Sequence record: SRR22947727_5184
Direction: 5' to 3' (one strand)
DNA: 40,775 nucleotides
Positions within the stretch are counted from its first letter, which is position 1, and each line of letters begins with the position of its first letter. Under the pieces are notes generated by a model that was not told where the DNA came from, ran no database searches, and saw only the letters and a list, made by a program, of their open reading frames with translations. Positions 18,388-32,516 of this stretch are shown here, one piece after another. A program made the position numbers and the translations under genes.

Positions 18388-19335
18388 CTAGACCATTCCT
18401 GCCATTCTCACTTTGAGCGCGGGGTCGGTAGGGTCCGTCCAGTCCTGTCGCGCCGCCCATTGCTCAAATGAGGCGGGTCGGTGCGTAAAAATGTGATTGA
18501 TGTGCGCAGTGTCTGCGATCAAAGGAGACACGTCCTGCGTGTTGTAGAAACGATAAAACCCCGCCATGCGATCGTAGATTGACAGCGGTTCTACTTTTTC
18601 TGAACCGGTCACCAACAAGCTCATGCCGGAGGCAAACTGGTCCGGGGTTAGGCTATTGAAGGTAACGGTTTTTCCCGTCACCTTGCTCAGGCTTTCGGCA
18701 AGTTGATCCCCCACTAAGGCCTCTGGTCCCCCGATCGCGTAACGACCACTGGGGATATCATCGCGGCTAAGCGCCTCCACCATGTAGGCGGCGACATCGT
18801 CGAGGCAGATCCATGAAATCAATAAATCTGGTTTAGCCGGGTAGGCAAAGATGCCTTGATTAACAATGGCTGGCTTATTCCAGCTTCGGATCAGATTGTC
18901 CATGAATACCTTGGGCTCGAAAATAGCGTAGGCCGTCTCGCTGTCAATAATGGCTTGCTCGATATCGCGGCGGCCATCGTGGGCGGGGTTGCCGTTTTCC
19001 TGTTCAGCGACAAAGCAGCTGGTGTTAAAGACAATTTTTTTAACGCCATTTTCGTTGGCTGCGGCTGCGATATTATTTCCTAAGCTTGCGGCCATCTCGC
19101 GATCAAAAACAAAGGGTAGATGCGCGGCGATCGCGTCGGTACCGTGTGCCGCCTTAATCATAGATTGCGCGTCATACAGATCTGCTTGCACTGTTTCGAC
19201 ATGGGCAAACTCTGTGCCCTGTAAAGCGTCAGGATTTCGCAGCGCGGCGACGGGTGTGAAGCCCGCATCCATCAAGCGAGTCAGGAGGGGATGGCCTTGG
19301 TCTCCCGTTGCGCCAAGCACTAACACTCTGGTCAT
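18388..19335 (-). CDS. NmrA-family NAD(P)-binding protein (atypical SDR)
   Basis: VLGATGDQG Rossmann motif, FMDN and SWICLDDVA; ATGA overlap with the upstream gene. Confidence 0.85.
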   Translation of the reverse strand: MTRVLVLGATGDQGHPLLTRLMDAGFTPVAALRNPDALQGTEFAHVETVQADLYDAQSMIKAAHGTDAIAAHLPFVFDREMAASLGNNIAAAANENGVKKIVFNTSCFVAEQENGNPAHDGRRDIEQAIIDSETAYAIFEPKVFMDNLIRSWNKPAIVNQGIFAYPAKPDLLISWICLDDVAAYMVEALSRDDIPSGRYAIGGPEALVGDQLAESLSKVTGKTVTFNSLTPDQFASGMSLLVTGSEKVEPLSIYDRMAGFYRFYNTQDVSPLIADTAHINHIFTHRPASFEQWAARQDWTDPTDPALKVRMAGMV

Positions 19336-20984
19336 TCTGCATTCTCCGATTGGGCGGCTGACTTGCCGGCGATATAGCCAAAGGTGAGGGTTGGGCCTAA
19401 CGTGCCACCAGCGCCAGCATAAACGCTACCCGTTGGATTACTGATCACATTGCCCGCACCGTAAAGTCCCGGTATCACCTCGCCGTGGACATCTAGTACT
19501 TGCGCTGTGCCATTGGTTTTGGCGCCACCATTGGTGCCCAGTGCGCCCATATTGATTTCCACCGCGTAAAAAGGCCCGACTTCTACGGGTCCCAAGGTGG
19601 CGGCAGCACCGGGCCGCGAGCGGTCGCCATAGAAGCGGTCGTAGGCACTTTCACCGCGCCCAAAATCGGGGTCCTTGGCATCTGCCGCGTGGGTGTTAAA
19701 TGCGGACACCGTTGCGTCTAGCTGCTCCGCATCCACTCCCAAGGTACTCGCCAGGCTTGGCAGGTCTGCCCCTTGAATAATCCAGCCCGGCAAGGGATCT
19801 CCAGGCATCACAGAGGCAATGGGATACCGGCCAACGTATTGGCTGTCCATGATGAGATAGGCGGGCAGGTTGTGATAATCGTAGGTGGCTGGGTCAAAAC
19901 TCTGAAACGCACCGGCGAGCGCAGAGTAGTTGTTGGCTTCGTTGCAGAATCGTTTGCCCTGTCGATTTACCATCAGGCTGTGTGGCAAGGTCCGTTCGAT
20001 CAGCACCGGTAGCGACCGTTGCACTTCTTTTTGCGGGGCACCATTTTCTGGCCATTTATGTCCGCTCATAGACAATGTGGGGATCCACCAGGCGCTGGTC
20101 ATATTGCCCAATCCTGCTCCTGCACTCAGGGCCATTTTTAGCCCATCACCGGTGTTAGTCGGTGGTGATGCGGGTGCCGTTAGCGGGCCACGCATAAAGG
20201 TGGTTTTTAACGCTTCATCCCATTCAAAACCACCGGTCGCCAAAACGACTCCTCTCTTGGCGTTGATGGTTTGGTCGACGCCATCCTTTGTTACTCTGAC
20301 GCCGGTGACGCGACCCTCTGTATTGACTAACTCTCTGGCGCTGGTTTCAAGCAGCAGCTCAATGTCGCGATCTAGGCAAGCTTTCAGCAAACGTCCGATT
20401 AACGCCTGACCCCAACCCCGCAAATCGCCGTCAATACGACGTTGCATTTCTTCTGGCTCGACGATGCCGGTGCCGCCGCCTAAGGGCGTTTCAAGGAGCA
20501 TCATGCGCACTATGTCGCCACCGTTGTATATTTTGTCAGCCCAATCACCTAGTGTGCTGTAATCAAACAGGGCATTATCGAGGGCTCGTCCTCCGTCGGC
20601 AATTGCGCCGGGGCGATCGAGGTAATAGTCGGGATAGCCCTCTAGGATGTGTAACTCAAGAGCGCCCTGTTCATTTAAGAATTCAAGCGCGTTGCTCCCT
20701 TCGTCGACAAAGGCTTCCAACGTGTCAGCGCTCATTTCGCCATGATCTAAAGACCGAAAGTAAGCGAGCGCATCTTCTCGATTGTCGGCAATGCCTTTGG
20801 CTTTCATCTGTGGATTATTTGGCACCCAAACAATGCCCCCCGAAATGGCCGCGGTGCCACCGAGTCGCGGCCCTTTTTCGATGACGGTGACTGTTGCGCC
20901 GCATTGGTGAGCCGTCAAAGCCGCGGTTAAGCCCGCAGCCCCGGCTCCGATGATCAGCACATCTGTATTGAGAGGGTTTGTCAT
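19332..20984 (-). CDS. FAD-dependent oxidoreductase, 3-ketosteroid delta-1-dehydrogenase (KstD)-like family
   Basis: GAGAAG, GGTAAISGG, YPDY, LATGGFE, RFCNEANNY and YAGAGGTLG; start 20984 with GGGAGA upstream. Confidence 0.85.
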   Translation of the reverse strand: MTNPLNTDVLIIGAGAAGLTAALTAHQCGATVTVIEKGPRLGGTAAISGGIVWVPNNPQMKAKGIADNREDALAYFRSLDHGEMSADTLEAFVDEGSNALEFLNEQGALELHILEGYPDYYLDRPGAIADGGRALDNALFDYSTLGDWADKIYNGGDIVRMMLLETPLGGGTGIVEPEEMQRRIDGDLRGWGQALIGRLLKACLDRDIELLLETSARELVNTEGRVTGVRVTKDGVDQTINAKRGVVLATGGFEWDEALKTTFMRGPLTAPASPPTNTGDGLKMALSAGAGLGNMTSAWWIPTLSMSGHKWPENGAPQKEVQRSLPVLIERTLPHSLMVNRQGKRFCNEANNYSALAGAFQSFDPATYDYHNLPAYLIMDSQYVGRYPIASVMPGDPLPGWIIQGADLPSLASTLGVDAEQLDATVSAFNTHAADAKDPDFGRGESAYDRFYGDRSRPGAAATLGPVEVGPFYAVEINMGALGTNGGAKTNGTAQVLDVHGEVIPGLYGAGNVISNPTGSVYAGAGGTLGPTLTFGYIAGKSAAQSENAE

Positions 20985-21169
20985 GATGTCAGCGTTCTCC
21001 CGTGTCTGGTAAATGGTGCCTAAGCGGATTGAGCCGCTGGAATGGTATATTTTTTTCGTATCGCGTTGTAAAAAGATGTCAATATCTTCTGCATTTTGGG
21101 TCATCTCCAGAGTTCTTGGTCAACTGCTACAGATTGAGTCTCCTTGAAGGGAGTAACACGACGCTGCCA

Positions 21170-21373: not shown

Positions 21374-22666
21374 TTAAGAGGCGTCTGTTGGCGTAAAGGG
21401 TTGATCCGCGCGAATAAATAGCCACAAGATCGCGCCCACAAAGGCGACCACTGTTCCAGTTGAAAGTGCGGCTACCCAGCCAATGTGCGCCGCAAGATAC
21501 GGCATTGAGGGTGCGACCACGATGCCTGCGAGGTTTCCCCCGGTATTCATCACGCCACATGCCGGCGCAGTGTAGGGTCCGGCGACATAGGTTTGCGCGG
21601 ACCAAAACGATCCCTCGGCAAACTGTGTGCTAGCGAAACAGAGCGATAATAAAAAGACCGCCGTATAGGGTGAGTTGGCATAAAGCCCGGCATAGAGAAA
21701 AATGCCTGCGCCCATTAGACCAATGATCGCCGGGATACGACACCCCAGACGGGGTCCTAAACGTGCACAGAGGGCATCGCAGGTGTATCCGCCAATCGAG
21801 GCCATGACGGCGCCTGAGAGCCAAGGCAATGAAGCCAGAAAGCCTGTTTCAAGAATACTGAATCCGAGCTCGGTGACGAGGTAATGAAAAAACCACGTAA
21901 AGAACAAATAGAAGACGTAGTTTTCAGCAAAATAGGCGCAGGTGAGCAGCAAGGTATTGCGATTTTTAATGAGTTGTTTCCATGCCCCGAAGCCAACGTC
22001 TTGTGTCAGTTGTTGTCGGCTTTTTTGTATGTGGGCAAGCTCAACTGCGGTCATAGAAGGATGGTCAGCAGGCTCGTCAGTGGCATACCACCACCACAGC
22101 ATGAAGAGCGCGAGTCCAAGTGGGATGAACAAGTAAAAAGAGACCCGCCATCCCCAATAAACCATGACCACTGCCACCAATGGTTGCGCAACAGCGGCGC
22201 CCAGCGTCAGACCCGTACTGCTCACCGCGTTGGGGAGTGCCCAATGTCCTACTGGAAACCAGCGTTCTACAACGGCAGCCTGAATGGGGTAAATCGGTGC
22301 ATGAGCCACTCCCACTAAAAATCGTACGATTAATAGCGAGGCAATGATGCCACTGCCGGTTGTGAAAATATGGCCAGGAAGCCAACCCGTCAGAGCCGTT
22401 GTGACGATCCAAATAAGCCCGACACTGGCGAGCGCAAGTCTGGGCCCAAAGCGTTTACCCAATATGCCGCCCGGCAGCTGGCACAGGGCATAGCCCCAGA
22501 TGAAGGCGGCGTAAATCCAACCCATTTGTATTTCGCTGATGCCGAGTTCTGGCATCATGAATTCGCCCGCGACGTGAATGTTTTGTCGCATTAAATAAGA
22601 GAGAAAGCTGAGCAGAAAGAGGATGCTAAATAGCCGCCAACGAGTGGGGATAAGAAGTTTGCTCAC
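21374..22666 (-). CDS. MFS transporter, anion:cation symporter (GudP/DgoT-like) subfamily
   Basis: LSYLMRQN, QLPGG..GKRFGPR, VERWFP and GVMNTGGNLAG. Confidence 0.88.
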   Translation of the reverse strand: MSKLLIPTRWRLFSILFLLSFLSYLMRQNIHVAGEFMMPELGISEIQMGWIYAAFIWGYALCQLPGGILGKRFGPRLALASVGLIWIVTTALTGWLPGHIFTTGSGIIASLLIVRFLVGVAHAPIYPIQAAVVERWFPVGHWALPNAVSSTGLTLGAAVAQPLVAVVMVYWGWRVSFYLFIPLGLALFMLWWWYATDEPADHPSMTAVELAHIQKSRQQLTQDVGFGAWKQLIKNRNTLLLTCAYFAENYVFYLFFTWFFHYLVTELGFSILETGFLASLPWLSGAVMASIGGYTCDALCARLGPRLGCRIPAIIGLMGAGIFLYAGLYANSPYTAVFLLSLCFASTQFAEGSFWSAQTYVAGPYTAPACGVMNTGGNLAGIVVAPSMPYLAAHIGWVAALSTGTVVAFVGAILWLFIRADQPFTPTDAS

Positions 22667-22724
22667 AAAGAAGAGGCCTTAATTAGTGACAATGAATTGA
22701 GCGGTCGCGCGCACGGTATGGCGG

Positions 22725-23825
22725 TCACTCCACCAACTCACTCAATTTGCGGTTGACGTAGTTTCGGATGTCTAAGCTTTCGTCCTCCATCGGGGCATAG
22801 TAACCATGTTGAAAGACCTTGTTCTGCATGCCGCGTTGCACACTCTCGCAAATAGCCCAGTCTTGATGATTAACCTTGTCCCAAAATTGAACGGCATCAG
22901 TGCTGTCAAAATGAGGTGTAGAGAGTTCGTCGGGATGAAACAGAAACTCACAGTGAATCAGCGTGCGAGAGGCGCTTTGGGGTAATAAAGTGAAAGCCGC
23001 AACGTGATCCATCGATAGGCTCAACATCAGATTGGGGTAAAAAAGCTCTCCCTTATGATGTGTCTTTTCGCCCTCACTGAGCCCAGGAAAAGGTGATCGA
23101 GTCGTGTTTCCGGAGACGGTAAACGTATTGGCACCAGCGCGATGGGGGACGCCATCATCCCAATTGAGCTCACTGCCACCGCCTTGTTTAAAAGCGGGAA
23201 CAAGTTCACAGAGTTCTGGGTGTATCGGTCCGCAGTGGTAGCACTCGTTGTAGTTCTCAAGGATGACCTTCCAATTAGCGGCAACGTCATAGGTGATCAC
23301 ATCGCCCACCATCAGATCGGCGAGGGGGTAACGTGCTAACCGGTCTACGCCTTCTCCCAGTGCGGCGCTGAGCGGCGTGTCGGTGGCGTCGTCCAGATGG
23401 ATAAAAAGAAAGCCTCCCCATTCAGCCAGTGGGAGGGTGTGTAAGGTGACGCCGGTGGTATCCACGCTCAGGTGGGGCGTTCCGCGCAAACGGCCATCGA
23501 GATGGTAGCTCCAAGCGTGATAAGGACACACAATACTGCGGTTGAATCGCCCCGTTATCGGACCGGGTTGGGTGAGCGGCACTAATTCGGTGCCTCGGTG
23601 ACGACAGACATTATAAAAGGCGGATAAATCGCCCTGCTCGCCGCACACGATTACTATCGATTGGTTCTGCAAGCGCAGGGCAAGGTAATCTCCTGGCTCG
23701 GATAAGGCGCTCGCGCGTCCGATACAGACCCAGCTCTGCTCAAAGATGGCGCGCCATTCTTTTTGGAAAGTGGCGTCATCTAAGTAGCTGTCTCGTGGCA
23801 GCGTTTTTTCAAGCGAGTCGAGCAT
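22725..23825 (-). CDS. Rieske non-heme iron oxygenase alpha subunit (betaine/stachydrine/choline monooxygenase-like group)
   Basis: Rieske ligands CRH...CPYH; mononuclear iron site NWK..ENYNECYHC..IH with a distal QD. Confidence 0.92.
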   Translation of the reverse strand: MLDSLEKTLPRDSYLDDATFQKEWRAIFEQSWVCIGRASALSEPGDYLALRLQNQSIVIVCGEQGDLSAFYNVCRHRGTELVPLTQPGPITGRFNRSIVCPYHAWSYHLDGRLRGTPHLSVDTTGVTLHTLPLAEWGGFLFIHLDDATDTPLSAALGEGVDRLARYPLADLMVGDVITYDVAANWKVILENYNECYHCGPIHPELCELVPAFKQGGGSELNWDDGVPHRAGANTFTVSGNTTRSPFPGLSEGEKTHHKGELFYPNLMLSLSMDHVAAFTLLPQSASRTLIHCEFLFHPDELSTPHFDSTDAVQFWDKVNHQDWAICESVQRGMQNKVFQHGYYAPMEDESLDIRNYVNRKLSELVE

Positions 23826-23855
23826 CGTACCTCTACTGTATTGTCGTACTCGGAA

Positions 23856-25985
23856 TTACCGTGGAAATACGATTTGGGGCGTTGTGGGCACGATGGGTTC
23901 ATCGCGAAGGTAGCTTGTCTCGTCATCGACCAGTCCGCGCGCAAAGCTATGGCCACTGTGAACAGCGTGCACGATCGCGCCGGGTGCCAAGGCATCGCCC
24001 ACTAAAGAGACAGATGATGCCGTACCGGGGGATTCGGTATTCGTGACTAATGCGTCATAGAGCGCATCGTTAGGGACGCGATACCCCACAATCACGACGC
24101 CATCGACCGCCAATTCGAGGGTGATCTGATTGAATAGATTGGCCACTGTGGCGTGCGTCCCCTCAAAGCTGATCAGGTTAGTGGTGGTATGGATTGCGAC
24201 GCCTTCTCTGGCCAACGCTTGGTAGACGAAAGGCAGTTCATTGGTCATGAATGTCCACGCCGACGCATGGCCCGCGGGGGTCGCATAGGTGACCTGTTTA
24301 CCGCTGATGGCAAGTTGTTCAGCGATCACGCCACCCAAATAATAGTGATCAAAATCGAATACCAGTAAGCGATCGCCGGTAACACGGCCGGCGAAGACAT
24401 CATCCGGTGTAAAGACTTGCGGCTTATTGAGTGGTGCGATCGGAATTTCTAGTGCCGAGTAAAGGCTGCGGGTCCACTGCGCCCCGGTGGCCAAGGCGAT
24501 ATGGTCGGCGCCGAAGCTCTGAATGGCGTCACAGTCTAGGTCGCTATTGGTGAACATCGAGACATTGCCCATCTGAGATAAGGCCCAAACGCGATAGTCC
24601 CGTACGCGCCGCCACGACGCCATGCCCGGTAGCTGGCTTTCTTTGAGCACGCGACCACCCCAATCGTCATCGCGTTCGGCGATGGTGACGTCAAATCCCT
24701 GTCGCGCCGCAACCAAGGCAGCCTCTAGCCCGCTGGGACCGCCGCCGACGACCAGCACGCTGCTGGGCTTGTCGGTTTTGGTAAATTTTTCTGGATGCCA
24801 TCCACGGCGCCACTCCTCACCGGCAGTCGCATTTTGCGTGCAGCGCACCGGCACGCCGTCGTGCCAGCTGGCAATGCAAATGTTGCAGCCGATGCACTCT
24901 CGAATATCGTCACTGCGGCCTTCTCTAATTTTGGTCGGTAAAAAGGGGTCGGCAATGCCAGCGCGCGCGCCACCGATGAAATCCAGTACGCCGCGGCGAA
25001 TCTGCGAAACCATCGTGTCGGGGGAGGTGAAGCGCCCCACGCCCACGACGGGGCGATCGGTCACAGTTTTGACAAAGTCGATGATGGGTTCGTGCGCACC
25101 TTCGGGGCGAAAGCGCGAGGCGCCACAGTCGTGGGGACTTGAATCCATTTTGACGTCCCATAAGTCGGGCACATCAGACAATAGTGAGACCACGCCATGC
25201 GCCTCGCTTTCATAGTGCTCAGCAGGCTTGGCACGGAGTTCTTCCAGGCTGATTCTCAGCGCGACGGCGGCGTGACTGCCGGCTTCATCACGGGTCACCT
25301 CTAACATTTCGCGAACGAAACGGACGCGATTTTCGAGTGGCCCACCATAGCCATCATCACGAAAGTTGTATTCGGGTAACAGAAACTCATAACCGAGATA
25401 TCCCATGCCCGCGTACACATACAGAATATCGAAGCCCGCATTTAATGCGCGTCGCGTCGCCAAGCGCTGCCAATGGAGCACGTCATCGATGTCGGAGGGG
25501 GTCATTTTTTTAGGGCGCAATTGACCCATGAAACCAATATGGGTGGCCGCCCACGGAATGCCAGAAGGAGAGAGTGGGGGCAGTCGAGAAGTGCGATTCA
25601 TCACCACAGCACCGCCATGCCAGAGTTCGACGGCGGCGAGACTGCCATGACGATGAATCGCCTCGGTAGAGAGCGCATGAGAGGCAATATCAGCGTCGCT
25701 CCAGAGTTTGGCAAAAGGCAGTGGAGAGTCATCGGAGCTGGGGTGGATCGAGACGGCCCCGGTGCTCACCACGCCCCAGCCACCTTCGGCCTTGGTCTCG
25801 CGAAAAGCGGCTCGCACGCGCGGATTGGCTTCGGTCATACCGCTGGCGTGGGGCACTTGATAAAAGCGATTGGGCGCCGTCACTGGACCAATTTGTATCG
25901 GTTCAAACAGGACCTGATGACTGGGGTGGCAAGCACTCAGATCATGATGCTGATCAAGCGTACTGGCGATGGCTGATTGACTCAT
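23856..25985 (-). CDS. Trimethylamine/histamine dehydrogenase-like flavoprotein (OYE barrel, 4Fe-4S, nucleotide-binding domain)
   Basis: LFEPIQIGP..NRFYQVPH, KAEGGW, CIGCNIC...CTQNATAGEEWRRGWHPE and GGGPSG; start 25985 avoids overlap with the MFS gene. Confidence 0.9.
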   Translation of the reverse strand: MSQSAIASTLDQHHDLSACHPSHQVLFEPIQIGPVTAPNRFYQVPHASGMTEANPRVRAAFRETKAEGGWGVVSTGAVSIHPSSDDSPLPFAKLWSDADIASHALSTEAIHRHGSLAAVELWHGGAVVMNRTSRLPPLSPSGIPWAATHIGFMGQLRPKKMTPSDIDDVLHWQRLATRRALNAGFDILYVYAGMGYLGYEFLLPEYNFRDDGYGGPLENRVRFVREMLEVTRDEAGSHAAVALRISLEELRAKPAEHYESEAHGVVSLLSDVPDLWDVKMDSSPHDCGASRFRPEGAHEPIIDFVKTVTDRPVVGVGRFTSPDTMVSQIRRGVLDFIGGARAGIADPFLPTKIREGRSDDIRECIGCNICIASWHDGVPVRCTQNATAGEEWRRGWHPEKFTKTDKPSSVLVVGGGPSGLEAALVAARQGFDVTIAERDDDWGGRVLKESQLPGMASWRRVRDYRVWALSQMGNVSMFTNSDLDCDAIQSFGADHIALATGAQWTRSLYSALEIPIAPLNKPQVFTPDDVFAGRVTGDRLLVFDFDHYYLGGVIAEQLAISGKQVTYATPAGHASAWTFMTNELPFVYQALAREGVAIHTTTNLISFEGTHATVANLFNQITLELAVDGVVIVGYRVPNDALYDALVTNTESPGTASSVSLVGDALAPGAIVHAVHSGHSFARGLVDDETSYLRDEPIVPTTPQIVFPR

Positions 25986-25996
25986 AACAGGCGCCT

Positions 25997-27277
25997 TTAT
26001 CGAGCAGAGGATGAGATCACGGACCCCATCAAAGTGAGGGCAATCGCCGCGAGCGCGCAACAACCGCCATACATCCAGAATACGCCATCATAGCTGCCAG
26101 TGGTGTCACTAATATAACCCGCGAGGGGGGCGCTGGTAGCGGTGATGGGAATGTGAAGTGGGTTCATCACCCCGAGCGCGCGACCCACACTCCCTGAGCC
26201 AAAAGTTCGGGCGGGCATGCTGGTCCATAGCGGCACTACCCCACCGTAACCAATACCCAATACAAAAGCACCGGCAAGGAGCCCCGGGTAGCTTTGCCAC
26301 AAAAATAAAATGAGCAAGCCGCTGCTGAGAAAGGCGCAGATTAAATAACCACAAGACTGAATGCCCAGTCGATCCATGAAGTATCCGGCAAGCGCCTTTC
26401 CGCAAAAGGAGCACGCGGCAATTAGCGTGTAGAGTAATGCCGTAGCTTGGCCAGTGACGCCGAGATCCTTAGCATGCAGACTCAAATTTGCCAGCATACC
26501 CAGTGTGACCGCAAGCAGTGAGCCCGACGCAATCATTTGAAGCCAAAATAATCGGCTCTTCAGCAGATCCGGGATTTTCCATTCGGTGGCCTCTGCGCTA
26601 GGCACAGTGTTGAGCGTTGTTTCCTGATCGGGCTCCCCTGAAAGGCCAAGATCATGAGGGTGGTTGCGCAGTAAAAAGTAGAAGACGGGCATGAAAGCAA
26701 AGCATATAAAGCCTGCTACGATCAATGCGGTGCGCCAGTCCCATTCAAGAAACATCCAGGTCATTAGCGGCGGCATGAGAAAGCCGCCGATGGAGCTACC
26801 GGTCGCGGCGAGCCCAAGAGCTAGCCCGCGACGGCGAATGAACCAGCGACTGATTACTGCTGCGCCCGGGATGGCACCAATCAAGAGCACTCCCAAAGGA
26901 ATGAGACTTGCCCAAACTGTCCAAACATGTAGGAGGGTGCCCGCTTGGCTAAGGACGATCAGGCCGAGGCCCATAGCGGTCAGTCCGATCATCATCAGGT
27001 GTCTGACCGACCAGCGATCGATAAGAATGCCGGCGATGGGAGAGAGTAAATTCGTGGAGACCGTCAGGCAGGTCTCGATGAGGTTAATTTGCGCGCGGGG
27101 CGCACCAAAAACATCCTCAAAGGCAGCGGTATAGAGACCCATGCTCCAAAATACAAAACCACCTTGTAACATCTGCCCGGAGCCAGCCGCCAAGACAATC
27201 CACCACCCTGGGTAAACCGTTTGGTCGGCGGGTGCCGGTGAGGCGTTGCCCTGATGGTGTGCGTTGTGACGGGTCAT
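25997..27277 (-). CDS. MFS transporter (MCT/OFA-like)
   Basis: YPGWWIV, GILIDRWSVR and SRWFIRRRGLALG; start uncertain (27277 or 27322). Confidence 0.85.
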   Translation of the reverse strand: MTRHNAHHQGNASPAPADQTVYPGWWIVLAAGSGQMLQGGFVFWSMGLYTAAFEDVFGAPRAQINLIETCLTVSTNLLSPIAGILIDRWSVRHLMMIGLTAMGLGLIVLSQAGTLLHVWTVWASLIPLGVLLIGAIPGAAVISRWFIRRRGLALGLAATGSSIGGFLMPPLMTWMFLEWDWRTALIVAGFICFAFMPVFYFLLRNHPHDLGLSGEPDQETTLNTVPSAEATEWKIPDLLKSRLFWLQMIASGSLLAVTLGMLANLSLHAKDLGVTGQATALLYTLIAACSFCGKALAGYFMDRLGIQSCGYLICAFLSSGLLILFLWQSYPGLLAGAFVLGIGYGGVVPLWTSMPARTFGSGSVGRALGVMNPLHIPITATSAPLAGYISDTTGSYDGVFWMYGGCCALAAIALTLMGSVISSSAR

Positions 27278-27374
27278 CGTGTCTGTCGCAGGCTCTTGGA
27301 TAGCAGCATTACCTGTCACCATAGGCGCTTTGTGGCACCATGGTAAAGCGATTCAAACGATGATGAGGCCAGCT

Positions 27375-28127
27375 ATGCGTCCCCATAAGACAATCCGAGG
27401 GCATCTCCACTATACCAGTCGCAAACCAGGGCGTGAGGGAGTGGAGCGAGGGCGAGAACACTTTGCTATCACCGTGCACGCGGATGGTCGGCGGACATTG
27501 CGCGCCCATTGCGAAATCGATGACGCACCGAATGTACTGAGAGACGTGACGCTCACTAAAAATGCGCAGTGGGACACAACGGATGCCTTTGTGAGGCTCT
27601 CAGTTGGGGATGTTGATACCGGGAGTAGTTGGTTCTGGTTCGGTGAGCAAGGTGCTGATTGCGAGGGCTGGACGGCTGCCCGAGGTCGATTCTCTGAGCA
27701 CGAAGCCTATGATCAACGACCGCTGATATTCGGCACACATCCCATTCAGGGTGATGCGTGGCACCTTGCGGTAATCGATCGTCATCAAGCGTCACCAATA
27801 CAGTTATTTGACCGTTTTCTGATGACCTCACTCGATCATCGGGGCGCTACCGGGCCGTCGTTAATTTGGCATGACGCTGGCATGCGCATTGAGTACGTGG
27901 GTGAGGAGACGATCACGGTGGCTGCCGGTACTTTTGATGCCTGGCATTTTTGTTATGGCCACCGAGACAGCAAGGCGCTTGGATCGAATGACACGAATGA
28001 GCACCCGCCCTATGAGGTTTGGGTGAGCGCGGATGGCGAGTTTATTTTACTCAAGGCACATGTATCAGGCTATATGATGACTCAGTACGAGCTGGCCTCT
28101 CTTGAGGTGCATGCAGGTGGTGATTGA
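27375..28127 (+). CDS. Hypothetical beta-rich protein, divergent from the MFS/TMADH-like operon
   Basis: Long ORF with natural-looking composition, GAGG RBS before ATG 27375, GEETITVAAGTFDAWHF motif as seen in DUF3108-like beta-barrel proteins. Confidence 0.75.
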   Translation: MRPHKTIRGHLHYTSRKPGREGVERGREHFAITVHADGRRTLRAHCEIDDAPNVLRDVTLTKNAQWDTTDAFVRLSVGDVDTGSSWFWFGEQGADCEGWTAARGRFSEHEAYDQRPLIFGTHPIQGDAWHLAVIDRHQASPIQLFDRFLMTSLDHRGATGPSLIWHDAGMRIEYVGEETITVAAGTFDAWHFCYGHRDSKALGSNDTNEHPPYEVWVSADGEFILLKAHVSGYMMTQYELASLEVHAGGD

Positions 28128-28140
28128 TTCGCAGGGCGCT

Positions 28141-28215
28141 GACGCTTAGCGCATTGACTCTCAGCAAATAGACTCTCAGCAAATAGACTCTCAGCGAATC
28201 GACTCTTAGCGAGTT
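28141..28215. repeat. 15-bp tandem repeat (consensus GACTCTCAGCAAATA), 5 copies
   Basis: Units at 28141, 28156, 28171, 28186 and 28201; the units at 28156 and 28171 are identical and the flanking units are degenerate. Confidence 0.9.
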
Positions 28216-28292: not shown

Positions 28293-29894
28293 TCATCCGC
28301 TCGGGAGTCGGTTGAAATCACCCAGTACCCCAGGATTCATGAGTCCCTCTGGATCCAGTTCTCGTTTTAGCGCACTTAACACACTGCGGCTGTCAGGGTT
28401 GAGACTCGACAACATCGGATAAGTCTTACCGATTTGATTGCTGGCTGCCCCCTGCTCGGCAAACACTGCAACAACGGTGCTGCGAATTTCATCTACCAGC
28501 GCGCGACCCTCGGGATTTGCCGCAGGCTCTTTGAGTTTGGCGAGATAAGCCGGCTCTGGTACCTGTTTATGAATCGGTAACCATTCGTCAAACCATCGTA
28601 AAACCGGTTCGTAGCTAAAAATAGATTGGGCAATAGCAATATATAAAAAGCTCATGGTCACGCCATGCTGCGCCATGCGCGCTCGATACGGATCAATCGC
28701 TGCTTCAGTGGCTGCAATGAGCGCCGCTGAATCTGAGTGAGATACTTTGGCGTTTAATGCGGCCCAGCGCTCTCCATCAGCCCCTAAAATGCCATTAAGG
28801 GGTTCAAACGGGTTAGCTCGAGCGGCCTTGGGTATGGTGTTGCTAATGATAACGCCACCGTGCGCTGTCGCCAAACGCGTTGCCTGAATGCAATCGTCAT
28901 GCACGCCCGCGGCTGAGCGTCCTGCACAGACAAAATGTAAGGTGTGAACGTTACCCTCTACGAACCGTCGCCCCGCAATGGCCATCTTTGCTCCTTCCTG
29001 AAGTCCTTTTATGAGGTTCGATTGCGAGCGAATGACATTGCTGAGTCGGTTGATGTCCTTCATGAGCGTTGCCGAGTCGAGGGAGCGCTGGGTTGTGGCA
29101 GGATCAAAACAATAGGCCTCCTCACAGAAGCCACTGCGACCAATGGCTGAGAGTGCCTCAATGGCCTCTTGCTGTGTGGCGAAGGCGAGGGAGCCGTATT
29201 CTGCTGCTTCGGGCATCGGCATCATTTTCAGCGATGCTTGCGTTTTGACACCCAAGGCGCCGGCGTCATGAACAAATAGGCCGGTGATGTCGGGTCCGTA
29301 CTGCCGGAACCCGGGGCGGCCATTATGAAACGCGGCTTGTCCCGTTCGAATGCAGCGTCCTCTGCCATCGACAACATCGACACCGACGACGATATCAGCC
29401 GCGCTGCCGTAGCGCGCTGTCCCCATAAAGAGTGCGCCATTGGATAGCCCCCCGCCGACGGTGGCGCGACTGCCAGAGAAAGTGCCAAAAAAAGGTAAGC
29501 GGAGACCGCGAGGGGTGAGTGCTTCCCAGATCTGCTGCCAGGTGACGCCCGCTTCAACCGTAATAATCAGGTCATCCTCATCAATGGATACGATACGGTT
29601 GAGTGCGCTGAGATCCAGCATCACCGTCTCAGCCCGCTGGGGCAGGTAGCCTCCGGTATAGGACATGCCGCCGCCGCGCTGCGTGATGGCCCAGCCCGCT
29701 TGCGTGCTAATCCGCACGGCATCAGCGACTTGCGCTGGTGTTGTCGGCCTCACGACGAGGCCGGGGGCTACACCGGGACTGTAGACGTCGGTTGTGTACA
29801 GCGCGGTATCGGGCGTGTTGATAAGGGTGCTGGGGCCCAAAGCTTGACTTAAGGCATCTCGCAGTAAGGCGGCTTGGTTAGCGGCGGTGTTCAT
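28293..29894 (-). CDS. FAD-binding oxidoreductase (VAO/PCMH, D-lactate dehydrogenase-like)
   Basis: RGGGMSYTGG, TVEAGVTW, ATVGGGLS and C-terminal LKRELDPEGLMNPG. Confidence 0.88.
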   Translation of the reverse strand: MNTAANQAALLRDALSQALGPSTLINTPDTALYTTDVYSPGVAPGLVVRPTTPAQVADAVRISTQAGWAITQRGGGMSYTGGYLPQRAETVMLDLSALNRIVSIDEDDLIITVEAGVTWQQIWEALTPRGLRLPFFGTFSGSRATVGGGLSNGALFMGTARYGSAADIVVGVDVVDGRGRCIRTGQAAFHNGRPGFRQYGPDITGLFVHDAGALGVKTQASLKMMPMPEAAEYGSLAFATQQEAIEALSAIGRSGFCEEAYCFDPATTQRSLDSATLMKDINRLSNVIRSQSNLIKGLQEGAKMAIAGRRFVEGNVHTLHFVCAGRSAAGVHDDCIQATRLATAHGGVIISNTIPKAARANPFEPLNGILGADGERWAALNAKVSHSDSAALIAATEAAIDPYRARMAQHGVTMSFLYIAIAQSIFSYEPVLRWFDEWLPIHKQVPEPAYLAKLKEPAANPEGRALVDEIRSTVVAVFAEQGAASNQIGKTYPMLSSLNPDSRSVLSALKRELDPEGLMNPGVLGDFNRLPSG

Positions 29895-29950
29895 GGGTAC
29901 GCTCCGTCAAGAGGTGATCTGATGCGCCAACACCGGCCGCTCTAGTGTAT

Positions 29951-30766
29951 TTATAACCTATGTTGCGCAAAAAATGCGTGGGTTTGATCGAGAATCGCCC
30001 TCGCTCTTTCGACTGGATCGGGGTAGCGCTCACGATAAAAAAGTGACCGAATCTCTAGGCTAATGGGCAAATCGTGAGGTAATGCGCGTGCCATCTCGGC
30101 GACCGGAATGGCGCCTTCTCCTGGCGCGAGCCGTCCGTCGATCGCATCAATAAAATAGGCCTCTGGGTCGGAGAGTGTCCCGCCTTGTGGCATGTCACAC
30201 AGTTGTGCATAGCTGAGCCACTCGAGCGGGATCTCGCTGATCTTTTCGGGTGCATGACCGACCCGTTCATGGTGAAAAGGATCGACCAAAATGCCTCCTG
30301 CGGGATGGCCGACGGCGGTGACCACATCGAGTGCGTCGTCCAACGTTTTAACCTCGGTGATACCCATGTATTCAAGGCAGGCACGCATGCCTGCTGCGCT
30401 CGCGTGTTCGCACAGATCTGCATACAGCCATTGAGTTCGTTCTCGATCGGGCTCTGAGCTGACGATGAGGCAGTTTTTGGCGCCAATCTCGCCGCCAATC
30501 GCGATGATTTCGTGATGAAGTGGATCGGGGTCGGCACCGGCTTGTAACCAAATCACTTCAATATCGAGGGCAACCAGTCCGGTTTCGCGTAAAGCAGCGG
30601 CCACATCAGCGCTGGTATTGGCATGCCAGTTTTCTCCTGGCGCCACCCACAGTCCTACTGCGTTGTAGCCTGCATCGGCTGCGATCCGCACCATATCGGG
30701 GGCCGAGACAATGGGCGGATTACCCTCGTGGACCCCTGAGGCGAGTGCGATTAATCGTTCGCTCAT
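29951..30766 (-). CDS. Sugar phosphate isomerase/epimerase family TIM barrel protein
   Basis: CLEYM, VDPFH, AQLCD, RLAPGEG and SLEI metal-site pattern. Confidence 0.85.
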   Translation of the reverse strand: MSERLIALASGVHEGNPPIVSAPDMVRIAADAGYNAVGLWVAPGENWHANTSADVAAALRETGLVALDIEVIWLQAGADPDPLHHEIIAIGGEIGAKNCLIVSSEPDRERTQWLYADLCEHASAAGMRACLEYMGITEVKTLDDALDVVTAVGHPAGGILVDPFHHERVGHAPEKISEIPLEWLSYAQLCDMPQGGTLSDPEAYFIDAIDGRLAPGEGAIPVAEMARALPHDLPISLEIRSLFYRERYPDPVERARAILDQTHAFFAQHRL

Positions 30767-30904
30767 ACTGGATACCTTGTCGTGACGCGGCTGCGGTGGG
30801 TCGCACATCTGGCCGCATTAATGCCGCTTTCTTAGGATAATCATGCAACGATCTGCCCGATCAATCTAGTCCTGATCGCGCTGCCTGGCATGATGGAATG
30901 GTCA

Positions 30905-30937
30905 GTTTTGATGGCTTGTTTTGATGGAGGGTTTTGA
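30905..30937. repeat. 13-bp-period repeat GTTTTGATGG, about 2.5 copies
   Basis: gttttgatggctt-gttttgatggagg-gttttga in a divergent intergenic region. Confidence 0.55.
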
Positions 30938-31142
30938 GCGAGTGAGGCGTGATTGAGTCGGTTCTTACGGTGGACGCTTCATTGGTGTATTGCTGGCACC
31001 TTGACTGCTACGGGGGGGCTCAGGGGCGGAGTTAGTGTGACGGCTTCATGCAAGGTAGCGAGGTACTGATTGTGAGGGCAGAATGTGAGGGGTAAGCTGA
31101 CTTTTTTGATTTGCGCGTGATGTCGTGGCGGGGTGATGAGCA

Positions 31143-31616
31143 GTGGTGGCAACAGTGAATCCTTTAGCAGGATTAGCGATCGTTCACACGGGGTTAGTGT
31201 GTCGAGACATGGCGGCGGCACAAGCACGCCTCAGCGAGACCTTGCACGTGTCGTGGATCGATGACAATCGAGAAGAGTGGCCTTTAACGATTTTTGGCAA
31301 GCCCGTCACGCTTAACCTTCGCATTGCCCACGCGAGTACGGGTGTGGCCAATTTTGAGTTGATTGAGGCTGTGCCTGATACTCCCTGGGTGACGACACAG
31401 GCCATCATGCAACATCACGTGTGTCTTTATAGTCCCGACTCGGCAGCGGTATGTCGATCTCTCGAGGCACTGGGCTATCAACGCCTTTTGGGTGCGGCGG
31501 GAGACCCGCAAGGCTATTTTCAGGATCCAGAGGGGTTGCTGATAGAAATCGTTGGCGACACGCTGCTCGCTTATTTAAACGCTTATTATGATCAGTCGCA
31601 AAGTGCTGTGGCATAA
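31143..31616 (+). CDS. VOC (glyoxalase-like) family protein
   Basis: HTGLVCRD, FELIE, HHVC and DPEGLLIEIV metal-ligand pattern; start uncertain. Confidence 0.82.
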   Translation: MVATVNPLAGLAIVHTGLVCRDMAAAQARLSETLHVSWIDDNREEWPLTIFGKPVTLNLRIAHASTGVANFELIEAVPDTPWVTTQAIMQHHVCLYSPDSAAVCRSLEALGYQRLLGAAGDPQGYFQDPEGLLIEIVGDTLLAYLNAYYDQSQSAVA

Positions 31617-31799
31617 GCCCCTGGCCTCTTGGGCGACAGATGGATTAAGGTAGTGGTGCACACGAAACAGGACACCGAGTGCGAACCATTAAGTCGTGCC
31701 AAATCGTGTGCCGTTACCCAGGATAATATGCGTGTGATGGCGTTGCACTGAACGTAAAATAAGGGATTCCTAAGTTCCGCTTCACTGAGAAAGGGTGCC

Positions 31800-32516
31800 A
31801 TGAACAAGACACAACCTATCCGTCCCAATGATCTTGAGTGGGAGACGTTCCATGACCCCCACGGGCGCCCGACCACTCCGACGCGCGTGTTGAAAAATAG
31901 TGACCCCTTTCTGATCGAGGCACAATTCCCGGCGCATTTTCGCGCCGATCAGCACTGGCACCCCTACGATACGATCTATGTCGTGACGAGCGGTGAAATG
32001 CGAATCGGTGATGAAGGCTCGTTTCGTCCGGGTGATGTTCGATGGGTTAAAGCAGGCCATAGCTACGGGCCAGAGGAAGCGGGCGCAGAGGGCGTTCAGT
32101 TTCACCTCTTTAGTTTGGGTGGTGAAATCGGATTAAATTGGGCCGATCTTTACGACGTGCCGAAGGCGTTAACCGAGCGACTGGCTCGATTTCAGTCGCC
32201 GTCCGGACGTCGTCGCATCGACCAAATGCCCTTGGTGACTCCAGACGGTTTATGCCCCGACTGGGATGCGATGCCTGATGAAGGCCCACTGATCTTTCGT
32301 ATGGCGCTAGCCAGTGATGCGGTTGCATCTGGTGTATCGATTCCCTTTGACGCCGTTTGGTATCTGCGTTCGGGCACGATTGAGATTGAGGGGGAGGTCA
32401 CAGTCGGTGAGGGTGAGTTTTTTTGCGCCAGTCCCGATCAACGCTATTCCTTAAAAGCGGGCCCTGAGGGCGCTGAGTGGTTGGTCTTTTCGAGCCAGAG
32501 CTTACAGCCCCTATAG
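31800..32516 (+). CDS. Cupin-domain protein (probable bicupin)
   Basis: HWHP.D..YVVTSGE and PGDVRWVKAGH; a second degenerate cupin YLRSG..GEGEF..Y...AGPEGA. Confidence 0.8.
   Translation: MNKTQPIRPNDLEWETFHDPHGRPTTPTRVLKNSDPFLIEAQFPAHFRADQHWHPYDTIYVVTSGEMRIGDEGSFRPGDVRWVKAGHSYGPEEAGAEGVQFHLFSLGGEIGLNWADLYDVPKALTERLARFQSPSGRRRIDQMPLVTPDGLCPDWDAMPDEGPLIFRMALASDAVASGVSIPFDAVWYLRSGTIEIEGEVTVGEGEFFCASPDQRYSLKAGPEGAEWLVFSSQSLQPL

Follow-up and report, generated by a model that had tools for sequence, protein, structure and literature searches.

The window analysed here, a 40,775-nt stretch of DNA from sequence record SRR22947727_5184, carries on its minus strand, from 27322 to 21374, a four-gene operon in which a flavoprotein of the trimethylamine dehydrogenase/histamine dehydrogenase (TMADH/HADH) family and a Rieske non-haem-iron oxygenase stand between two major-facilitator (MFS) carriers. 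The gene order, the four protein families, the intact metal- and cofactor-binding motifs and the conservation of the enzyme pair are read directly from this stretch and its relatives. The module is a conserved variant of a known plan in betaine catabolism, in which a Rieske oxygenase is combined with an OYE-type flavoprotein (OYE: old yellow enzyme), with a new Rieske clade, a new TMADH/HADH clade and neither a reductase gene nor an electron-transfer flavoprotein (ETF) gene linked to it. We think it probable that the operon serves the catabolism of a carboxylate-bearing quaternary-ammonium (betaine-type) compound by stepwise oxidative C-N cleavage. Full-text literature searches for an operon with a Rieske oxygenase and a TMADH/HADH-type protein found no paper on such a pair.

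The window comes from Luminiphilus (Halieaceae), its closest public contigs being Luminiphilus and Halieaceae metagenome-assembled genomes (MAGs) with 95-99% protein identity. A preliminary description, made from the letters alone, had listed four same-strand genes with gaps of 11, 30 and 58 nt and a divergent gene of unassigned family; the listing of open reading frames (ORFs), direct reading of the minus strand and Pfam all agree with it. The Pfam matches were MFS_1 for both carriers (1.4e-40 for MFS1, 1.7e-50 for MFS2), Oxidored_FMN (1.1e-60) and Pyr_redox_2 (3e-13) for the flavoprotein, and Rieske (4.1e-16) and Ring_hydroxyl_A (4.5e-42) for the oxygenase. In operon order, with the divergent gene last, the features are:

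25997..27322, minus strand: MFS1, operon gene 1, a monocarboxylate/oxalate-formate-type major-facilitator transporter of 441 aa, with a second in-frame ATG at 27277
23856..25985, minus strand: TMADH/histamine-dehydrogenase-family FMN/4Fe-4S/ADP flavoprotein, 709 aa from ATG
22725..23825, minus strand: Rieske non-haem-iron oxygenase alpha subunit, 366 aa, with the Pfam domains Rieske and Ring_hydroxyl_A
21374..22666, minus strand: MFS2, the operon's last gene, an anion:cation-symporter (SLC17/DgoT-type) MFS carrier of 430 aa with a GTG start
27279..28127, plus strand: divergent conserved hypothetical protein, 282-aa ORF, DUF3108-like below threshold

The ORF listed for the flavoprotein is longer (735 aa) and starts at an upstream TTG inside MFS1. 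A scan for promoters and terminators gave counts that were not above those in shuffles.

The enzyme pair and its conservation

Two surveys were made, one keeping the 80 loci closest to the flavoprotein (48-99% identity) and the other a separate set of 80 loci of the Rieske family. A Rieske ortholog (47-99% identity) lies directly beside the flavoprotein gene in 63 of the 80 flavoprotein loci, a recurrence that puts the arrangement beyond chance; at least six of the 17 loci without a Rieske ortholog stop at a contig edge beside the gene. Whether the genes co-occur in other genomes had been set beforehand as a refutation test for the preliminary description, and these counts show that they do. 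The loci span Halieaceae, Steroidobacteraceae, other Gammaproteobacteria and three Bacteroidota MAGs labelled Cryomorphaceae or Flavobacterium. Order is mostly fixed as well: among the 66 loci with both ORFs, the Rieske gene follows the flavoprotein gene on the same strand in 55, the order is reversed in 3 and the two are on opposite strands in 8, with an estimated median gap of about 17 nt. Pairwise distances between flavoproteins and between Rieske proteins were strongly correlated (r = 0.93, 31 loci).

The other genes of the window are found with the pair less often. MFS2 follows the Rieske gene in 30 of the 80 flavoprotein loci and is near it in 17 of the 80 Rieske-family loci, while MFS1 and the divergent gene lie beside the pair or module in 17 and 16 flavoprotein loci, respectively. 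These last two are restricted to Halieaceae-type loci syntenic with the window (two of the records being titled as other taxa), save that the Rieske-based survey gave the divergent gene in 4 Woeseia-type loci also. From these counts, the core is the enzyme pair, usually together with a carrier of the anion:cation-symporter type. The distribution of the module in the Halieaceae is patchy: of 151 genomes sampled, 23 gave a match at E<=1e-150, with an identity of >=62% in about 18, and the proportion in Luminiphilus was 6 of 11. Two carriers are in culture, Luminiphilus sp. nBUS_07, whose module is 77% identical, and HTCC2080, with 66-67% identity. A 65%-identity match on an Ensifer chromid (H41) belongs to an unannotated record.

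The Rieske-based survey broadens the picture. An amine-oxidising flavoenzyme was present within 5 kb in 37 of the 80 loci, the enzyme being CrtI-like in 25, TMADH-like in 11 and SoxA-like in 4 (40 instances, since three loci were counted under two types, one of them with a CrtI-like and a TMADH-like enzyme). Such pairings with amine-oxidising flavoenzymes of further types favour consecutive steps. Other frequent neighbours in these loci are genes for proline-specific peptidases, peptide ABC systems and amino-acid permeases.

The Rieske oxygenase

The best solved relative of the Rieske protein was CntA (157 bits), followed by 3n0q and Stc2, and its identity to the annotated cntA product was about 31%. 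The GbcA equivalog model of NCBIfam, NF058607, gave 175.4 bits against a cut-off of 670, with a best stretch covering residues 7-211 only. In a quick maximum likelihood tree (110 rows, LG+G4, SH-aLRT support only), the Rieske family formed a single clade (99% SH-aLRT) apart from CntA, from the Paracoccus stachydrine-type Rieske protein and from a GbcA-like Luminiphilus paralog; the three reference branches were long, so that the branching order among the references is uncertain. By score, identity and tree, the Rieske enzyme is not a GbcA or HpbB ortholog, which the preliminary description had named as a second condition for refutation.

According to the available parts of PMC7948474 and PMC10952381, group V Rieske oxygenases have a bridging Glu (E205 in CntA) in place of the Asp of groups I-IV, with an adjacent Cys-x-x-Cys pair. 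In the same texts, Tyr203 of CntA holds the quaternary ammonium by a cation-pi contact, and the position is aromatic in Va (CntA, choline monooxygenase, OxyBAC) and Asn in Vb (GbcA, BmoA, Stc2). In the window protein the CxH...CxxH Rieske ligands C74/H76/C100/H103 and the 2-His-1-carboxylate iron ligands H197/H202/D322 align with those of CntA, as do the bridging E194 and the C195/C198 pair, and Y192 stands at the position of CntA Y203; all 31 sequences compared share these residues. The Paracoccus stachydrine-type protein, used as a control, has Asn at the CntA 203 position. The signature test discriminates, since a second Rieske gene found in the Steroidobacteraceae-type loci described below has a bridging Asp and no Cys pair, and so falls outside group V.

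By its sequence, the Rieske protein is assigned to a separate, new clade of group V (quaternary-ammonium) oxygenases, distinct from GbcA, Stc2/HpbB and CntA. The residues that form the polar pocket of CntA (Y225/N270/Y295) are Q214/S269/C292 in the window protein. With a group V signature, a CntA-type Tyr and this pocket lost, it looks like a CntA-type quaternary-amine oxidiser acting on a different substrate; having Tyr192 instead of the demethylase Asn, it may cleave a non-methyl C-N bond in the first step.

It could still be argued that the protein is a divergent GbcA, Stc2/HpbB or CntA, working on glycine betaine, stachydrine or carnitine with the usual reductase encoded elsewhere. GbcA is after all its best NCBIfam model and CntA its best solved relative, and one member of the family is labelled 'glycine betaine catabolism A' by JGI. 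However, the GbcA score is far below cut-off and limited to the N-terminal half, the identity to cntA is low, the clade is well separated, the demethylase position is Tyr rather than Asn and the polar pocket of CntA is gone. In addition, no GbcB/CntB-type reductase is present in a conspecific MAG (G001), and the complete genome of Luminiphilus sp. nBUS_07 (G002) has only the FNR-type proteins given below. We therefore regard this explanation as very improbable.

The flavoprotein and the source of electrons

Aligned over its full length, the flavoprotein scored 616 bits with histamine dehydrogenase (3k30), to which it is about 50% identical, 574 bits with 6l6j and 466 bits with TMADH. It is 27-29% identical to annotated HpbA (N-methylproline demethylase), the figure for the hpbA of two Paracoccus plasmids being 27.5-28%. 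The four 4Fe-4S cysteines (C364/C367/C370/C382) and the ADP-type motif G414-x-G416-x-x-G419 are invariant in its orthologs. These comparisons make it a full-length member of the TMADH/HADH/HisD group in which it is placed, by sequence, as a new clade. In our reading of the alignment, its small domain is without a second GxGxxG, as in HADH; the lack of a second dinucleotide motif points to an amine dehydrogenase and not to an NAD(P)H enzyme, and a role as NAD(P)H-dependent reductase was rejected on this ground.

The active site, on the other hand, differs from those of both TMADH and HADH. Cys30 of TMADH (Cys35 of HADH) is Ala47, which makes the 6-S-cysteinyl FMN link impossible; Tyr60 is Ala77, His172 is Met194, Trp264 is lost and Trp355 is W374, so that one of the three 'aromatic bowl' residues of TMADH is retained. 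All 78 sequences compared, from the window protein and 77 orthologs, have A47, G76 and M194. The active-site His (TMADH H172), which replaces the tyrosine of OYE, is thought to act in proton transfer, according to the accessible part of PMC11759058. For HADH, the part of PMC10180351 at hand proposes eight histamine-site residues (Q65, I74, F77, E79, N115, Y181, W267, D358), of which one is retained (Y181, Y196 in the window protein).

The Ala plus Met combination is rare among the nearest relatives. It occurred in only one of the 59 long cluster representatives within the best 150 matches of a library of 1.84 billion proteins, and that one, at 64% identity, is followed by a drop in score from 998 to 603 bits. 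In four Halieaceae paralogs (45-48% identity) both Cys and His are retained, and no Rieske gene lies within 4 kb of them. A 47%-identical paralog at L194:4021-9290 (genome G011) does have Ala and Met, with a 29%-identical Rieske gene 2 kb away; its neighbours (XdhC, MobA-like, malonyl-CoA decarboxylase and SnoaL) form a context unlike that of the window module, and it may represent a second, different Rieske-linked use of this type of flavoprotein.

As for the donor of electrons to the oxygenase, none is encoded nearby. No Fer2, FNR-type or ferredoxin-reductase domain was detected in the 31 ORFs of >=150 aa that were scanned in the window (38 are listed, the remainder overlapping). Searches by tblastn with CntB, PaaE and NqrF and with three [2Fe-2S] ferredoxins gave no match at E<=1e-4 in the window or in 160 related loci (<=18 kb), and a candidate ferredoxin reductase from G002 had no match in any of these 160 loci. 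The remark in the preliminary description that the window holds no ferredoxin or reductase gene is correct.

The search was extended to whole genomes. G001 (99% identical proteins, 97% complete, 290 contigs) is a 2.5-Mb genome with 17-18 Rieske alpha-subunit genes. Only two PF00175 proteins were found in it, NqrF and one with a 552-aa open frame, together with three small [2Fe-2S] ferredoxins, one of them within an isc cluster; PF14759 (Reductase_C), a GbcB/CntB-type reductase and a homolog of the Pyr_redox_2 candidate of G002 were all absent from it, with the proviso that a gene may be missed in a MAG of 290 contigs. The complete genome G002 has 9 Rieske genes and, as FNR-type proteins, NqrF, PaaE and one with a 565-aa open frame; free ferredoxins are present as well, as is a Pyr_redox_2 protein, adjoining another Rieske gene, that is a weak HcaD-like candidate. 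With 17-18 Rieske genes and no recognisable reductase in G001, the absence is genome-wide and not specific to this operon. A shared, unlinked electron donor is the simplest answer, and it is possible that the reductase is encoded elsewhere in the genome. Each of the two genomes has a single ETF alpha/beta pair, and ETF would be a plausible acceptor for the electrons of the flavoprotein, by analogy with the ETF genes that lie beside hpbA and beside Pno (PMC5500553, in the part available).

A more radical proposal is that the TMADH-like protein is both the second enzyme of the pathway and the Rieske reductase, with two electrons from the product amine flowing through its 4Fe-4S cluster to the Rieske cluster. 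If this were true, a quaternary amine would be cleaved twice with O2 alone, in a redox-neutral way and with no NAD(P)H or separate reductase. Several of the above observations would fit: the lack of an FNR-type reductase or [2Fe-2S] ferredoxin gene in the window and the 160 related loci; the genome content of G001, with two PF00175 proteins only and neither PF14759 nor a homolog of the G002 candidate; a gene order that is tight and mostly fixed (55 of 66 loci); and the distant Ala plus Met paralog that likewise has a Rieske gene 2 kb off. The loss of the covalent flavin link and the His-to-Met exchange, found in 78 of 78 sequences and rare elsewhere (1 of 59), could retune the flavin potentials. 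But the same Rieske family pairs with CrtI-like enzymes in 25 loci, with SoxA-like ones in 4 and with none in 43, and Pfam gives no Fe-S cluster domain for the CrtI-like partner; 8 of the 66 pairs are on opposite strands; the reductase is missing from the whole of G001, with its 17-18 Rieske genes, and not from the operon in particular; and G002 has free ferredoxins and a Pyr_redox_2 protein beside another Rieske gene. The 4Fe-4S cluster of TMADH lies near +100 mV and the Rieske clusters of oxygenases near -150 mV, so that transfer from the one to the other would be uphill. Moreover, known relatives of the flavoprotein pass their electrons to ETF-like acceptors, an ETF gene being located beside hpbA and, in the available part of PMC5500553, beside Pno. 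There is more against a direct transfer than for it, and we judge the double role quite improbable; the version in which the flavoprotein has been retuned by these two changes to feed the Rieske cluster directly stands no better a chance.

Substrate, neighbouring genes and known systems

What the substrate may be is suggested by the gene neighbourhoods in relatives and by the carriers. In 6 Luminiphilus loci, including that of the cultured HTCC2080, a BCCT carrier gene is divergent from the flavoprotein gene, and in loci of the HTCC2080 type genes for a PhyH-type dioxygenase, a GbcA-like Rieske protein and a GcvT-like protein come next. A BetI-type TetR is present in 15 loci, and other neighbours include GcvT-like, aldehyde dehydrogenase and further amine oxidase genes. 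The Steroidobacteraceae-type loci (L145-L173, e.g. L164:8001-14900) have, after the pair, a BetI-type TetR, the second, unrelated Rieske gene and a CrtI-like amine oxidase, with aldehyde and alanine dehydrogenase genes close by; their four oxidative enzymes are sufficient in number to strip a trimethylammonium group completely.

Both carriers point to acids. The best NCBIfam model for MFS1 was the L-lactate MFS transporter (119.7 bits, under the cut-off of 320), with MCT2 and SfMCT as best solved relatives, and MFS2 gave 196.7 bits with TIGR00893 (under the cut-off of 395), with DgoT, sialin and VGLUT as best solved relatives. The nearest relatives of both all transport carboxylates, and together with the neighbour genes in relatives this suggests a quaternary amine with a carboxylate group. 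The preliminary description had proposed uptake and demethylation/oxidation of an N-methylated compound. It was right in kind, in that an N-methylated or quaternary amine fits the BCCT, BetI-type TetR, GcvT-like and further amine oxidase genes of the relatives, but not in detail, as its model of successive N-demethylations as for stachydrine finds no support in that form: the flavoprotein is much nearer to histamine dehydrogenase (about 50% identity) than to HpbA (27-29%), and the Rieske enzyme has Tyr and not Asn.

The same genes can be read as part of a pathway for an N-heterocycle or alkaloid, of the nicotine type. The flavoprotein would then act like HisD or Pno on a secondary methylamine side chain and the Rieske enzyme would hydroxylate or demethylate a ring compound, with trigonelline, homarine and other N-methylated aromatic acids as examples. 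The second-best solved relative of the flavoprotein, 6l6j (574 bits), also has Ala at the position of the covalent Cys, and HisD, a 6-hydroxypseudooxynicotine amine oxidase, is among the solved members of the group (PMC11759058, in its available part). Acid-type MFS carriers are compatible with aromatic carboxylates, and the genes upstream, syntenic in Halieaceae, include glyoxalase/dioxygenase-fold, cupin and FAD_binding_4 oxidase genes, although this synteny is confined to that family. Against a ring compound, the Rieske enzyme has the complete group V signature including the cation-binding Tyr, of the three reference enzymes in the tree CntA is the nearest to it, and the BCCT and BetI-type neighbours in relatives suggest aliphatic betaines. 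We consider a pathway of this type rather unlikely.

The betaine-type pathway that we favour could run as follows. One or both MFS carriers would import the substrate or export an acid product. The Rieske oxygenase would hold the charged N-trimethyl head at Tyr192 in the manner of CntA and, with O2 and two electrons, delivered by a donor encoded outside the operon, hydroxylate the carbon adjoining the nitrogen. The resulting hemiaminal would collapse to an aldehyde and a tertiary amine or, less likely, to formaldehyde and a demethylated amine. At its non-covalent FMN, the TMADH-like dehydrogenase would then convert the tertiary amine (or a secondary one) by oxidation to an iminium ion, to be hydrolysed, and pass two electrons through the 4Fe-4S cluster to an acceptor such as the single ETF of the cell.

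A number of points weigh against the betaine-type pathway, or at least against its details. The carriers are unusual, since MFS proteins of acid families seldom serve betaines, for which BCCT or ABC systems are the norm. The polar pocket of CntA is not preserved, and the Va/Vb rule is founded on few characterised enzymes. An amine oxidoreductase gene is missing within 5 kb from 43 of the 80 Rieske-family loci, 11 of which are cut short. In the flavoprotein, one of three 'aromatic bowl' residues and one of the eight histamine-site residues proposed in the part of PMC10180351 at hand are kept, and the change of His172 to Met removes the residue to which proton transfer is ascribed (PMC11759058, available part), so that its chemistry may differ from that of TMADH. 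The conspecific genome yielded no identifiable electron donor for the Rieske enzyme. On the side of the operon's being in use, three RNA libraries, from two studies or more, have contigs that cover it at >=95% identity in 30, 24 and 5 of 30 bins, which is weak evidence that it is transcribed in the sea; RNA libraries can contain DNA, so these contigs are no proof of transcription. Co-transcription is not demonstrated, as no contig piece among the matches listed spans the flavoprotein-Rieske junction.

Quaternary amines (betaines and relatives of choline and carnitine) are major marine currencies of carbon, nitrogen and energy, and sources of methylamines. The module occurs in abundant Halieaceae of coastal waters and in Steroidobacteraceae of soil and appears in marine RNA libraries, and gene surveys are likely to mis-score it as gbcA or cntA. 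With its substrate identified, the marine cycle of methylated amines would gain a step. The two cultured carriers make it directly testable. The missing electron donor is itself a concrete biochemical question, for this operon and likewise for the 16-17 further Rieske genes that the small genome holds.

The genes and repeats around the operon can be dealt with more briefly. The divergent ORF matched DUF3108 with 23.8 bits, below the cut-off of 26, as weakly did 13 of 18 members of its family; the alignment of the 18 sequences has 45 invariant columns. No PDB relative was found for it, and Atlas returned hypothetical clusters only. Its orthologs are alike from about residue 38, so that the real start is probably near 27390. 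The matched stretch of the ortholog contains two in-frame stops in L099:5860-6705 and one in L116:5771-6580. Between the divergent gene and the FAD_binding_4 gene there is one further feature:

28148..28212, no strand: 15-nt tandem repeat, about 4 copies, Tandem Repeats Finder score 88-89

This stretch is one unit shorter in a DNA contig of run X2, and the repeat is probably outside the module.

Beyond it, at 28293-32516, are genes for an FAD_binding_4 oxidase, a xylose-isomerase-like TIM barrel, a glyoxalase-fold protein and a cupin. Their synteny with the module extends to 11-14 of 80 loci, every one a syntenic locus of the Halieaceae type; the genes may act on the carbon skeleton or be mere neighbours. 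On the other side, 270 nt downstream of MFS2, a KstD-like FAD dehydrogenase gene and an NmrA-like gene occupy 18388-21104. The best model for the former was 4-oxocyclohexanecarboxylate 2-dehydrogenase (470 bits, under the cut-off of 1000). The two were rejected as operon members: they are absent in syntenic relatives, with a 43% match in 1 of 80 loci, and the syntenic Luminiphilus loci run directly on to DUF423 and HlyD without them. The KstD-like and NmrA-like genes look like a local insertion.

When the module is set beside the systems already described, the flavoprotein shares with TMADH, HADH, HisD and Pno (OYE 2-ER cluster 3) the three-domain build, the FMN barrel, the four-Cys 4Fe-4S motif and the ADP-type GxGxxG. 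It differs from TMADH and HADH in having Ala for TMADH Cys30/HADH Cys35, Met for His172 and Ala for Tyr60 and in the loss of Trp264, and from the HADH of PMC10180351 (available part) in seven of eight histamine-site residues; the four Rieske-less Halieaceae paralogs, unlike the window protein, keep the Cys and the His. The dedicated NAD(P)H reductase of group V oxygenases (CntB/GbcB/HpbC type) was not found in the window, the 160 loci or G001.

With CntAB (group Va, PDB 6y8j) the likeness covers the Rieske and iron ligands, the bridging Glu, the Cys pair and the cation-pi Tyr, by the criteria of PMC7948474 and PMC10952381, to which the short, alpha-only form of about 370 aa can be added. The window enzyme is, however, only 31% identical and in a separate clade, the residues for the polar groups of carnitine are replaced, and no CntB reductase gene is adjacent to it or present in the conspecific genome. 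The genes that flank cntA encode a semialdehyde dehydrogenase and a BCCT carrier, whereas the partner in the window is an amine dehydrogenase.

The stachydrine route (Stc2/HpbB, then StcD/HpbA) differs in that the Paracoccus locus has a reductase gene beside the Rieske gene and an ETF beside hpbA, and the window neither; in that the window flavoprotein, at 27-29% identity to HpbA, belongs to the TMADH/HADH group; and in the Asn of the stachydrine-type Rieske enzyme where the window has Tyr. What the two have in common, as seen in the annotated Paracoccus locus and according to the accessible part of PMC11759058, is the plan itself: a Rieske oxygenase and an OYE '2-ER' FMN/Fe-S flavoprotein taking consecutive steps on one N-methylated compound.

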